A stretch of 64,000 nt of DNA. Origin: Albugo candida. Its lineage: Eukaryota. Location of the stretch: positions 124,001-188,000 of the forward strand of contig JBDOQK010000032.1 in the NCBI GenBank assembly GCA_040437565.1, given 5' to 3'. Positions 2,770 to 6,068 of the stretch are shown piece by piece. The notes under the pieces are model-generated. The model was not told the origin of the DNA and did not search any database. It was given only the letters and a program-made list of their open reading frames with translations. The position numbers and the translations under genes were made by a program. Each line of letters starts with the position of its first letter. The stretch's first letter is position 1.

Positions 2770-3120
2770 ACATACCGTTGAGAGGCATTTATCATTGGAG
2801 CAATTAAATTGAATGAATAGGAATCCGCTGAATTTATCCCTCTCATTACTTTTTGCCTTCTCGTGCCATTATGACGTTGAAACACAATGGCTCTCCATTC
2901 TCAGTGGTTATGCGCAGGCCCTTTGTCAAAGATTCGGACATTTGAAAACGGGATGATCTCAGAAACAAGCACGCCGACATACAGCGTGTCACATGAAAAG
3001 CAGTCAAAGCCAGTTGAGAGTTGAGTTTAACGGTAGCATACACCTGGTAAACTACAGTTTGCTCAGCGCTCGACTTTGTGGTGTTCAGTTTGCTGTGTAC
3101 TCGGCCCCTCTGAAGCGAAA

Positions 3121-3864
3121 ATGTCGATTGAATTTCCGAACCTTCCTTACTCGTACAGCGCGTTGGAGCCGTACATTGACACTCTGACGATGAATTTGCA
3201 TCACGCTCAGCATCATCAGACATACGTACACTCACTGAAAAAGTTTTTGGAGACGGTGTGGCTGAATTGTACATTGAAGCTCATACTTTAATGGGAATTT
3301 GACTTGTTTTTGTAGGAGCAAAATGGAGAATTGAAAGGAAAAGATATTGTGGAGATCATACAAAATGCAAAAGCAGAAAAGATTCGAAATAACGGTGGCG
3401 GACATTACAACCACAGTCTATTTTGGCTCTGGTTAGCACCACCTGGAACTGCCAATAGCGCACCTTATGGAAATCTCAGTGCGAGAATCGATGCTGATTT
3501 TGGGTCTATCGATGCGATGAAGACTCAATTTAACGCCGCAGCTGCAACACGGTTTGGATCAGGTTGGGCTTGGCTTGGTGTTGGGAGCAACGGGAAATTA
3601 GGCATCACATCGACACCAAATCAAGATAATCCACTCATGCCGGATGTCGATGAGCCAATGATCCCGATACTTGGGTTGGATGTGTGGGAACATTCTTACT
3701 TTCTTAAGTATCAAAATCGACGACCCGAATACATTCACGCTTTTTGGAAGTTGGTGAATTGGGATCAAGTCGTATACTGTTATGATGAGCATGCTTCCAA
3801 GCAGAAGCCTGTCCCCGTGGAGATGGTAGATTTGCCGTCAGGGAAATCGGTAGCTGGTAAGTAG
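3121..3864 (+). CDS. Mn superoxide dismutase, copy A (no targeting peptide)
   Basis: [46 protein letters not shown] and DVWEHSYF motifs; GGG and NQD are Mn-type signatures; one intron 3256-3315. Confidence 0.95.
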
Positions 3865-4100
3865 TCAGAGGAATCTATCGGTGTACAGCGTCAGCCTTGT
3901 TCTGGCTGGCATTTGGAGTAATACGTGGATCGGGAATGTCGTTAGGGTAGCATATAATCCGATAGGAATGAACTTTGTATTCTTGTTCTCATGGTAGTTG
4001 CTGTATCGAGATATTCTGCTGCTAGCATAAGTGTGTTTCTCATATAACTGGCAATTACAGCTGCGACGTTACCGCCAGGGACATGCAAAGTAAACTGCTC

Positions 4101-4186
4101 GGCTTTTTGCCTTCAAAAGAGCCTCATAACTGAATTTTAGGGCGCTGGGCCTTTTGCTTTCGCAGGAGCCTCACAACTGAATTTCT
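4101..4186 (+). promoter_or_regulatory. Imperfect tandem duplication of a ~38-nt unit with an Inr/FPR-like core promoter, directly upstream of SOD copy B
   Basis: ggctttttgccttcaaaagagcctcataactgaatttt versus ggccttttgctttcgcaggagcctcacaactgaatttc; each ends in a TCA....AATTT segment resembling the oomycete initiator plus FPR. Confidence 0.5.
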
Positions 4187-4195
4187 AAAGTGACG

Positions 4196-5015
4196 ATGGT
4201 ATTCAAGCTTCCATTACTGCAGTACCAATACAATTCGCTTGAGCCGTATGTGGACACGATGACAATGAGCATCCATCATTCCCTCGAGCACGAAGTTTAT
4301 GTTCAATTTATTAATGAATACGTTGAAAAAGCAAGTGCCTTGACCTTTGATAACACACGTTCTAAGACGCTACTATGAACAGTATCAAGGTGGCGAGCTC
4401 AAAGATAAAGATATCGTTCAAGTGGTTCAGAATGCCAAGGCTGAGCCTATTCGAAATAACGCAGGCGGGCACTACAATCACAGGTGTACCAATAAGTAAT
4501 TACATTTTGGAGCTCAGTGTAATGACTTTGCGTGTATTAGTCTTTTCTGGACCGTTATGGGCCCACCGGGATCGGTATCTCAAGCTCCAGGGGGGAAGTT
4601 GAAAGCCAAGATTCAGGAAGCTTTCGGTTCCATTGATCGGATGAAGGAGGAATTTGGAACAGTTGCTGCAGAACGATTTGGCTCAGGTTGGGCCTGGCTT
4701 GGCGTGAAGCCGGACGGCACCGTTGGCATCACGTCGACCATGAATCAGGACAACCCGCTCATGCCAAATGCAGTAGATCCCATGATTCCCATCATGGGTC
4801 TTGATGTAAGTCTCTATCATTGCTACACGGCCCGCAACCCATCCACTAACTTTGGGCGTTTTCAGGTTTGGGAACACGCTTACTACCTAAAGTATCACAA
4901 TCGTCGGAAAGAGTACATCTCAGCGTTCTGGAACATTACGAATTGGGATCAAGTGACTGCTAATTACGACATGTTCGCATCGAAACAAAATCCTATTCCG
5001 ATCCCAGGAAATTAG
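4196..5015 (+). CDS. Mn superoxide dismutase, copy B (divergent substrate funnel)
   Basis: [54 protein letters not shown] and D|VWEHAYY; introns 4331-4382 (probable GC-AG), 4484-4540 and 4806-4865. Confidence 0.93.
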
Positions 5016-5197: not shown

Positions 5198-6068
5198 ATG
5201 AAAAACACTGAATCTGTCAAGTATCACCTCGTCGAAGCAGAGGAAGTTTCTCATTCTAACACTTCTAATGACTTTGCACGATCAAGTAAACAATTCCGAA
5301 AAGGTAGGTGCTCGAATCCTTTTTGTTTGATGCCTAACGGCTTCACACAGGCAAAACCAATTGGAAGCAGCACCATACTGAGCTTGGCGCATCGACATAT
5401 TACCCAAAAGACCAGTACGGCTCTAAACATGAGCAGCGGTCTTATCGAGGCAACAAGCGAAGTAGTCGTTCAAAAGCGTACTCGCAAGCTTGCAAGCAAC
5501 AAAGGTGGAGCATGGACGATCCTTACTATCAAAACGAGCATGTCGAGTACACTCCTCACGGAACCTATCAAAACGGCGTTTTCGTACCGAATCCTGATGT
5601 TAGAATCACAGCTCAATGGGCCAAACAACAAATGTAAGTCGTCATCTATTCGCACACATTCAGTCTCAGACATTATCTCAATGTAGAGAGTTTTATTTTT
5701 CACCAGAGAATCTCGTCCGCGATATGTTTCTCCGTCAGCATATGGATGTGGACGGATACGTACCGTTGGCGTTTGTGGGAAGTTTTCAAGCAGTATATTC
5801 ACTTCATCAAGACTATCCTTCACTTCTCGAAGCCATGCAGTCGTCTGAAGTAGTGGAATTCGATCATGTAAACGAAAAAATACGATTACGGTACGGATGG
5901 GAAAAATGGTTGTGGCCTAATCCTGACGGAACGTACGGAGTCCCATCATATGTGAAAATGAACATGTACTCTCTTGATCCCGAAGCAGGCGAGTGGGGAC
6001 ACCTACAACCAGAATACCCGCAAAAATTTGCCTCGTACGGTGAGCAGTACCCAGCAGCGGCATACTGA
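5198..6068 (+). CDS. La-motif (LARP-type) RNA-binding protein
   Basis: Spliced QQI|EFYFSPENLVRDMFLRQHMDVDGYVPLAFVGSF matches the La HTH motif; introns at about 5304-5350 and 5634-5686. Confidence 0.85.

Follow-up and report, generated by a model that had tools for sequence, protein, structure and literature searches.

In the white-rust oomycete Albugo, two tandem genes for Mn-type superoxide dismutases (SODs), here called copy A and copy B, lie on the + strand of the window (the whole 64 kb stretch of DNA analysed), and each encodes one residue of the canonical His30–Tyr166 pair: copy A has His30 with Phe at position 166, and copy B has Glu at position 30 with Tyr166. Taking the gene models, alignments, phylogeny and fold prediction together, we propose, at about even chances, that A and B are specialised cytosolic SODs of the Mn type, that they stem from an old tandem duplication and have been kept by selection, and that they would form mixed A:B dimers. 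The two proteins are natural, conserved "mutants", one for each end of the His30–Tyr166 bond, encoded by adjacent genes. As such they are a natural system for testing the role of this bond, and whether duplicated homodimers become asymmetric heterodimers through the splitting of a cross-subunit contact.

Organization of the two SOD genes

Copy A (3121-3255 + 3316-3864) encodes a 227 aa protein and contains a single GT..AG intron of 60 nt. Exon 1 (3121..3255; 45 codons) codes for His26, Tyr34 and the His30 equivalent (codon CAT, 3211-3213), and is represented in spliced contigs of sequencing runs X18 and X20. The intron (3256..3315), in phase 0 after codon 45, is removed in one contig of each of these runs (joint 3254>3315, cut +1), and exon 2 (3316..3864, including the stop codon) codes for His74, Gln143, Asp159, Glu162, His163 and an acidic C-terminal tail. 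There is an in-frame stop at 3034 with no upstream in-frame ATG, and the reading frame is ended at 3864 because the X18 contig continues unspliced to 3973.

A spacer of 331 nt (3865..4195), flanked on both sides by + strand genes, separates copy A from copy B, and an in-frame stop at 4178 precedes the copy B ATG. Copy B (4196-4330 + 4383-4483 + 4541-4805 + 4866-5015) encodes 216 aa and has three introns, the first with a GC donor. Its exon 1 (4196..4330; 45 codons) includes the gateway segment IHHSLEHEVY, and intron 1 has the same position and phase as the copy A intron; the GC donor at 4331 was picked because the B orthologs read ...NEYVEKYQ.G, this junction resting on orthologs and lying outside the RNA contigs. 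Exon 2 (4383..4483) is followed by intron 2, which is spliced out in an X18 contig (joint 4481>4539, cut +2), and exon 3 (4541..4805) encodes Gln143 within STMNQD. Intron 3 (4806-4865, GT..AG) is placed by ortholog alignment alone, and exon 4 (4866..5015, including the stop codon) encodes VWEHAYY, with the Tyr166 equivalent at TAC 4884-4886, and the invariant tail PIPIPGN. Two introns only, that of copy A and intron 2 of copy B, are backed by RNA contigs. A tblastn search over the 64 kb window gave SOD matches to A and B only.

The assembled letters are repeated by independent runs. X18 and X20 contigs span 3315-3973 with 0 differing letters, and an X5 contig spans 3713-5100 (leaving 3697-3712 outside it) with one difference, a synonymous C>T at 4703 (GGC>GGT) in exon 3 of copy B that is also found in X19. 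The copy B Glu codon is unchanged in X5, the sole run covering it. In X18, whose run type is a guess and which we call RNA-like, A and B are each represented by a spliced contig; X20 has one for A, and X19 consists of unspliced pieces; these contigs report presence, not level, cell or stage. With the same residues recurring in orthologs, the substitutions are real and not sequencing errors.

Substituted positions and retained active site

The preliminary description, which recognised A and B as tandem paralogs, located the two substitutions exactly: the Phe at the Tyr166 position of copy A is TTT at 3700-3702 (A residue 174, the last letter of DVWEHSYF), and the Glu at the His30 position of copy B is GAG at 4286-4288 (B residue 31). 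Human numbering was assigned by motif and agrees with the residues named in PMC9208312. Alignment bears out that all four metal ligands (His26, His74, Asp159 and His163) are present in both copies, together with H31, Y34, W161, E162, Y165 and the C-domain Gln143. This Gln, in the NQD motif, is the Mn-type marker and is found in every A, B and canonical row, the metal type being assigned by sequence only. Neither copy is thus a pseudoenzyme partner of the Chromera PsaSOD1 kind, in which one protomer is minus a metal ligand. Copy A matches the Pfam domains Sod_Fe_N in exon 1 (55.2 bits; cut-off 27) and Sod_Fe_C in exon 2 (134 bits; cut-off 20.9), and copy B likewise exceeds the curated cut-offs, for Sod_Fe_N in exon 1 (42.7 bits) and for Sod_Fe_C in two parts (64.5 bits at 4542-4805 and 48.6 bits in exon 4). 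The full-length orthologs P0001 (A) and P0016 (B) match both domains (PF00081 and PF02777).

In canonical MnSODs, a hydrogen bond runs across the subunit boundary from His30 to Tyr166, an arrangement that neither A nor B can provide by itself. As was originally pointed out, the His–Tyr bond is impossible in A:A and in B:B, and an A:B dimer would have one, at A's site only. The fixed changes specific to A are Tyr166 to Phe plus Thr33, and those specific to B are His30 to Glu, Lys29 to Leu, Thr or Met, Gln32 to Glu, Ala33 to Val and, in most sequences, Gln170 to His. The contacts at the core of the dimer (FGS, NQ and WEH) are the same in A, B and the canonical copy.

Conservation among relatives

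Both substitutions are rare, each is confined to its own type, and the pattern goes beyond chance. Among 229 database relatives, position 166 is Tyr in 219, Phe in nine (all A-type) and a gap in one; position 30 is His in 204, Glu in five (all B-type), Ser in one and a gap in 19; and no protein of the 229 has Phe166 and Glu30 together. When 150 representatives of 50%-identity clusters are considered, 145 have His30 and 146 have Tyr166; elsewhere, Phe166 recurs only in P0403 and Glu30 only in P0261, a degraded B-like sequence. P0403 is from an unrelated lineage and has Gln30, Ala34 and Phe166 within a single chain. A lignin-oxidising Sphingobacterium MnSOD reportedly also has natural replacements near His30/31. 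In the alignment rows, Phe166 is present in 8/8 A-type sequences, and Glu30, Glu32, Val33 and Tyr166 each in 8/8 B-type sequences; His30 and Tyr166 are both found in 10/10 canonical oomycete rows.

Copy A is 95% identical to A. laibachii F0WB03. Between A. laibachii and G. ultimum or P. insidiosum, identities are 69.9 and 71.7% for A and 79.6 and 80.1% for B, and the canonical copy of A. laibachii is 79.3% identical to that of Phytophthora. Because their conservation about equals that of the canonical copy, A and B appear to be under constraint, with no drift.

It is therefore very improbable that A and B are redundant duplicates drifting neutrally next to a canonical cytosolic MnSOD, or products of sequencing or assembly error. 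The preliminary description had named a third canonical SOD with neutral evolution of these two as a reading that would undo its proposal, and its first part holds: a canonical third MnSOD is present in A. laibachii (P0021 = F0WDR7) and in P. insidiosum (P0251). The second part is contradicted by the conservation, with identical residues in orthologs from no fewer than five named species and Albugo–Pythium identity on a par with that of the canonical copy, and artefact is countered by the same letters in independent runs and by both genes appearing as spliced transcripts.

Conservation also bears on the original proposal of complementary degeneration after duplication, giving an obligate heterodimer in which only A's site works and B is a largely silent structural partner contributing Tyr166 and Glu162. 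We consider this improbable. A His30–Tyr166 pair is indeed possible in A:B only, the Chromera PsaSOD1/2 pair has one dead subunit (PMC12830998), and human Y166F is less stable and less catalytic (PMC9208312), Tyr166Phe and His30Gln each lowering kcat about 30-fold (PMC8024262). Against it, B has four ligands, Tyr34, Gln143, Trp161 and an invariant Glu30/Glu32/Val33, whereas decay should leave a site variable; B, unlike the dead Chromera subunit, has lost no ligand; and mutants at these positions are impaired, not inactive. The reported k1 values for human MnSOD are 0.2 for Y166F, 0.21 for H30N and 0.57 for H30Q, with 1.5 for wild type (PMC9208312, Table 1). Rate constants of such mutants are still roughly 10-40% of the wild-type values, so the homodimers need not be dead, and an "obligate" heteromer does not follow. 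The invariant gateway together with the intact ligands suggests that selection favoured a specific site in B, with no decay, and the half-site-active dimer is not borne out.

Phylogeny and gene order

The tree contains 44 rows, namely 42 database proteins selected from 195 (leaving aside fragments and the majority of unnamed algal and bacterial matches) and the two window proteins; the first 82 residues of P0001 were trimmed beforehand, the corresponding window sequence being interrupted by an in-frame stop. A-type sequences form a clade (99/95), as do B-type sequences (100/100), and the two are sisters (98/96); the pair is nested within the oomycete cytosolic MnSOD clade (98/94). The tree shows that a diverged copy of the canonical oomycete cytosolic MnSOD was duplicated in tandem before the split between Albugo and Pythium–Globisporangium, each daughter gene altering one end of the inter-subunit His30–Tyr166 proton-relay bond.

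The A-type gene adjoins the B-type gene in P. oligandrum (Poli38472_007492, B, and Poli38472_007493, A), P. insidiosum (three assemblies: PINS_up019309/019310, PINS_up004624/004625 and ATCC90586_005360/005359), G. ultimum, A. laibachii and this window, with K3W5B6/K3W5B7 and F0WB02/F0WB03 as neighbour pairs in UniProt. H30E and Y166F thus co-occur as adjacent paralogs in Albugo, Pythium and Globisporangium, as the preliminary description had suggested looking for. Retention or loss of both genes is not independent evidence, because a single deletion takes out both neighbours. Three fused gene models also read A then B on a single strand. We rejected these (P0233, 897 aa; P0237, 409 aa; P0238, 546 aa) as natural A–B fusions or as evidence of binding, since they lack parts of the proteins or include spacer read as protein, and the same species also have A and B modelled as distinct genes.

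We did not see the A/B pair in Phytophthora or downy mildews. Absence of the canonical copy from Pythium is ruled out, as P. insidiosum P0251 falls in the Phytophthora cluster. The presence of the pair in Albugo, Pythium and Globisporangium may mark differences in the handling of oxidative stress among plant and animal pathogens. No description of a split A/B pair was found in the literature searched; these genes could be listed in supplementary tables of oomycete genome papers.

The predicted A:B dimer and possible roles of the two sites

A fold test with P0001 residues 83-309 and P0016 scored 0.90, compared with 0.59 for the best of three controls, with 100% contact agreement between runs and a partner pLDDT of 93; 51 of 78 solved complexes and two of 108 mismatched pairs attain the mark used for this test. 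The score, obtained for A:B, does not tell it apart from A:A or B:B, and the pass may reflect solved SOD dimers already known to the predictor. The predicted interface includes positions 30 and 166 of both chains (A Phe, P0001 residue 256; B Glu, P0016 residue 31). Clade-diagnostic positions fall in the predicted interface in 2/3 cases for A (Fisher p 0.023) and 2/7 for B (p 0.13), numbers too small to weigh, and the alignments, which include few species, showed by eye no sign that interface positions covary between the A and B orthologs. A mixed A:B dimer is plausible, given the unchanged core interface, the fold-test pass and the precedents described below.

Our proposal is that both proteins would bind metal and dismutate superoxide, with proton delivery and gating retuned, and that mixed dimers would form where both are made, perhaps as one species beside A:A and B:B, given an unaltered core interface and the spliced contigs of both genes in run X18. 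Such a dimer would have two unlike sites: the A site with the canonical pair, His30 from A and Tyr166 from B, and the B site with an acidic gate of Glu30 and Glu32 from B opposite Phe166 of A. A stronger form of the proposal, which we regard as rather unlikely, is that A:B is the selected physiological form, an asymmetric MnSOD with one canonical His30(A)–Tyr166(B) site and one re-engineered site in which Glu30/Glu32 are set against Phe166(A) and Val33. If true, the B site would differ in proton delivery, product release, metal preference or even substrate, and a division of labour between subunits would exist in a textbook symmetric enzyme, older than the divergence of Albugo and Pythium.

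Several considerations weigh against a mixed dimer. The two extra Glu residues and the lost Lys at the mouth of the B funnel should repel superoxide. Simple chemistry favours B:B, because Glu30 in A:B would face Phe166 and be partnerless, and in B:B it could in principle act as a hydrogen-bond acceptor paired with Tyr166. There is also no compulsion toward a mixed dimer, because engineered Y166F and H30 mutants stay active. Another reading, which we treat as a tenable possibility, is that A and B are separate homo-oligomeric isozymes, B:B with a Glu30–Tyr166 bond and an acid-gated funnel, and A:A equivalent to a naturally occurring Y166F variant whose relay is slower but coupled less tightly, each for its own condition (metal supply, pH or peroxide signalling). 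The two ends of one bond would then have been altered by coincidence, aided by the shared active-site shell. Within B, Glu and Tyr form a self-consistent pair (each in 8/8 rows), and the B changes are clustered in one invariant gateway segment at positions 29-33. P0403, altered at positions 30, 34 and 166 in one chain, indicates that such sites can be retuned within a homomer. Mutants at either position are active, H30N alters product release and, in C. elegans, metal uptake (PMC9208312); H30N takes up iron with 22% of activity kept, and the effects in the human H30N/Y166F double mutant are non-additive (PMC9208312). Separate isozymes fit less well with the tree, in which the reciprocal pattern arose on sister stems right after a single duplication, with the tandem order retained in five named species and the window, and with a core interface that is invariant over A, B and the canonical copy and so presents no visible bar to mixing; SodA and SodB mix though more diverged (PMC3212961).

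Comparison with known systems

A and B share with the canonical oomycete cytosolic MnSOD (the Phytophthora cluster P0010 and A. laibachii P0021) the fold, both Pfam domains, the lack of a presequence, the ligands, Tyr34, Gln143 and the core interface, with about 60% identity to each, and in the tree it is the parent clade of A+B. The canonical proteins have Lys29-His30 and Tyr166 in 10/10 rows and a short ...SKGKPV.. end, whereas A and B each lack one end of the His–Tyr pair and have derived features in common, an EQ.GELKGK loop, NWDQV and KQ.P.P tails.

The positions altered in A and B are the same two that have been altered in engineered human MnSOD (Y166F, H30N/Q/V and H30N/Y166F) and C. 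elegans H30N, and neutron structures locate a proton shuttle on the His30–Tyr166 bond (PMC8024262). The human mutants are laboratory changes in a homotetramer, whereas those in A and B are natural, fixed in their clades and divided between paralogs, and the Glu at position 30 of B is not among the engineered mutants listed in the passages of PMC9208312 considered.

Duplicated homomers often give heteromers (PMC6711710), and paired paralogs of the Fe/Mn SOD family are found in plastids. PAP4 and PAP9 (FSD3 and FSD2) form a plastid FeSOD heterodimer through the homodimer interface (PMC11561172), and the protomers of Chromera velia PsaSOD1/PsaSOD2 are functionally differentiated, one being without a metal ligand (PMC12830998). 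These are Fe-type plastid proteins docked on RNA polymerase or photosystem I, whereas A and B are Mn-type, have no targeting sequence and are predicted to form a dimer. In enterobacteria, SodA and SodB yield a hybrid dimer whenever they are co-expressed (PMC3212961, citing Clare, Blum and Fridovich 1984). This hybrid is a by-product of reduced activity with neither reciprocal active-site substitutions nor conserved gene linkage, whereas the A/B pair has both.

Gene organization and transcription

The two MnSOD genes of the window, copies A and B, lie on the + strand 331 nt apart and both contain introns. Copy A (3121–3255 and 3316–3864) codes for 227 aa with one intron, and copy B (4196–4330, 4383–4483, 4541–4805 and 4866–5015) for 216 aa with three. 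In each, the two Pfam domains of the Fe/Mn superoxide dismutase family score above their curated cut-offs, and no other SOD was found in the 64-kb window. The sole intron of A and intron 1 of B fall at the same codon and in the same phase, as expected from tandem duplication. B introns 1 and 3 were placed by ortholog alignment only; intron 1 (4331–4382, + strand) was assigned a GC donor (GCAAGT...AG) because B orthologs read ...NEYVEKYQ.G. Splicing from the closest GT, at 4322, would remove a Val-Glu-Lys present in all of them.

In public run X18, an 870-nt contig spanning 3044–3973 joins 3254 to 3315 (A without its intron) and a 245-nt contig joins 4481 to 4539 (B without intron 2); run X20 also has a spliced A contig. 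The RNA type of both runs is a software guess, accepted here because the contigs lack introns whose ends are GT..AG, and the contigs speak to presence, not to level, stage or cell.

In-frame stops lie upstream at 3034 (A) and 4178 (B), with no in-frame ATG upstream of either start in the window's reading frames, so that an N-terminal extension would need a further intron; from this we infer that both proteins are cytosolic. The public Albugo laibachii Nc14 model of copy A (F0WB03, P0001; 309 aa), the best database match of A with 95% identity across exon 2, carries an 82-residue N-terminal extension. Since the matching window frame is interrupted at 3034 and lacks a start codon upstream of 3121, and the spliced contig begins at 3044, this extension is probably an annotation artefact. 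Full-length identity to the A. laibachii proteins is 94.3% for A and 96.3% for B, which places the window in an Albugo near to, yet distinct from, strain Nc14. By eye, the upstream open frame 1831–2649 resembles an RNA-binding protein whose tail is rich in Gln and Tyr, and the downstream frame 5616–6068 looks La-motif-like; ten runs of exactly 100 N (one at 1035–1134) are scaffold gaps, none within A or B.

The substitutions and their read support

As the preliminary description reported, A has Phe (residue 174, TTT at 3700–3702, + strand) at the position of human Tyr166, and B has Glu (residue 31, GAG at 4286–4288, + strand) at that of His30. Both copies keep the metal ligands His26, His74, Asp159 and His163, together with His31, Tyr34, Trp161, Glu162, Tyr165 and the C-domain Gln. 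The window or part of it is contained in 20 rows of public runs from 14 studies, three of them possibly source data. Contigs of X18 and X20 cover 3315–3973 with 0 differences, and an X5 contig covers 3713–5100 with one, C>T at 4703, also seen in X19; it is synonymous (copy B Gly133, GGC>GGT) and the only difference over 2101 bases compared in four runs. As far as covered, the runs agree with the window at both sites, Phe in X18 and X20 (X5 lacks 3697–3712) and Glu in X5 alone.

Distribution and evolution

In a careful IQ-TREE analysis of 44 rows, the A clade (support 99/95) and the B clade (100/100) are sisters (98/96), nested within the oomycete cytosolic MnSODs (98/94), with stem lengths of 0.11 for A+B, 0.12 for A and 0.29 for B; branching order within clades is weakly resolved. 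Five named species have both types: A. laibachii, Globisporangium ultimum, P. insidiosum, P. oligandrum and, in a fused model, [Pythium] brassicae. The check suggested in the preliminary description, co-occurrence as paralog pairs in related species, gives a positive answer. All named matches listed (best 120 of 8000 per search) from Phytophthora, Peronospora, Plasmopara, Hyaloperonospora, Peronosclerospora, Aphanomyces, Saprolegnia and Achlya are canonical (His30 and Tyr166), and absence of A and B from these genera is provisional on that depth.

Adjacency of the two genes is conserved. Locus tags (given as B/A) are consecutive in P. oligandrum (007492/007493) and in three P. insidiosum assemblies (019309/019310, 004624/004625, 005360/005359), as do B/A accessions in G. 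ultimum (K3W5B6/K3W5B7) and A. laibachii (F0WB02/F0WB03). Three fused gene models (P0233, P0237, P0238), from P. insidiosum, [Pythium] brassicae and one further record, place A ahead of B on a single strand, the window order; P0233 adds an unrelated upstream protein. We take these for annotation read-through and not for natural fusions, the A–B spacer evidently being short in those genomes too.

Albugo and Globisporangium/Pythium sequences share 69.9/71.7% identity for A and 79.6/80.1% for B, against 79.3% for the canonical copy between Albugo and Phytophthora, so that constraint on A and B is of the same order. In A. laibachii (P0021) and P. insidiosum (P0251) the pair does co-exist with a canonical copy, but the neutral evolution of the pair that such a third enzyme might have allowed is at odds with this constraint. 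Neutral drift or artefact is very improbable.

The two substitutions define clades, A and B respectively. Among 229 database relatives pooled from searches each listing the best 120 of 8000 scored, 9 (all A-type) carry Phe at position 166, against 219 with Tyr and one with a gap; at position 30, 5 (all B-type, also with Glu32) carry Glu, 204 His and one Ser, and 19 have a gap; no protein listed has both Phe166 and Glu30. His30 is retained in 145/150 and Tyr166 in 146/150 representatives of 50%-identity clusters. The sole further Glu30 there is P0261, a degraded B-like sequence, and the sole further Phe166 is P0403 (265 aa; SOD-family, signal-peptide-like start), which combines Gln30, Ala34 and Phe166 in one chain with metal ligands kept; here the entire outer proton relay has been lost in an independent lineage. 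The representatives also include P0295 (1217 aa) and several proteins of 500–900 aa with one to three SOD-like stretches, perhaps SODs of fused or multi-domain build.

Consequences for activity and dimerization

According to published work, His30 and Tyr166 of the partner subunit are joined through the buried nitrogen of His30 and share a proton in a low-barrier bond, and Tyr166Phe and His30Gln each lower kcat ~30-fold and kcat/Km ~10-fold (PMC8024262). Against a wild-type k1 of 1.5, Y166F has 0.2, H30N 0.21, H30Q 0.57 and the double mutant 0.1, and C. elegans H30N retains 22% activity and takes up iron (PMC9208312, Table 1 for k1). Loss of the bond therefore impairs the enzyme without abolishing its activity.

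The preliminary description read the reciprocal loss as complementary degeneration, giving a half-site-active A:B dimer. With B ligands intact and Glu30, Glu32 and Val33 invariant (8/8 B-type rows), we judge this model, with a silent B, improbable. Lys29 is replaced by Leu, Thr or Met and, in 7/8, Gln170 by His; so consistent a charge-shifting change at the funnel mouth argues that selection has favoured a specific site and that B is not decaying.

ESMFold2 passes the A. laibachii A and B orthologs as a pair (score 0.90 vs 0.59 for the best of 3 controls; contacts agree 100% between runs, partner pLDDT 93), at a mark reached by 51/78 solved complexes and 2/108 mismatched pairs. Solved SOD dimers are abundant, so the pass may reflect those known structures, and it cannot place A:B above or below A:A and B:B. 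The predicted interface core is invariant in A, B and canonical proteins (Asn70, Phe-Gly-Ser 125–127, Asn-Gln 147–148, Trp-Glu-His 169–171), its variable positions are exactly 29, 30, 33, 166 and 170, and nothing visible would prevent mixing. Whether A:B dimers form and matter we regard as evenly balanced. Against a selected heterodimer, co-loss of adjacent genes would be a single event, Glu30 opposite Phe166 would have no partner in A:B, and B:B is chemically self-consistent, with Glu30 a putative hydrogen-bond acceptor for Tyr166. That A and B act as separate homo-oligomers is the less probable alternative.

Comparison with known systems

The observation is thus confirmed and widened: A and B are a transcribed, linked paralog pair, and the pairing is conserved in other oomycetes. 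No description of the pair was found in the literature searched. The Fe/Mn SOD family and the theme of heteromeric SOD paralogs are known already, and this pair is a variant within both. In published work, duplicated homomers often give heteromers (PMC6711710), a SodA/SodB hybrid forms on co-expression (PMC3212961), PAP4 and PAP9 pair via the homodimer interface (PMC11561172), and in the Chromera PsaSOD1/2 heterodimer one of the two protomers is ligand-deficient (PMC12830998).
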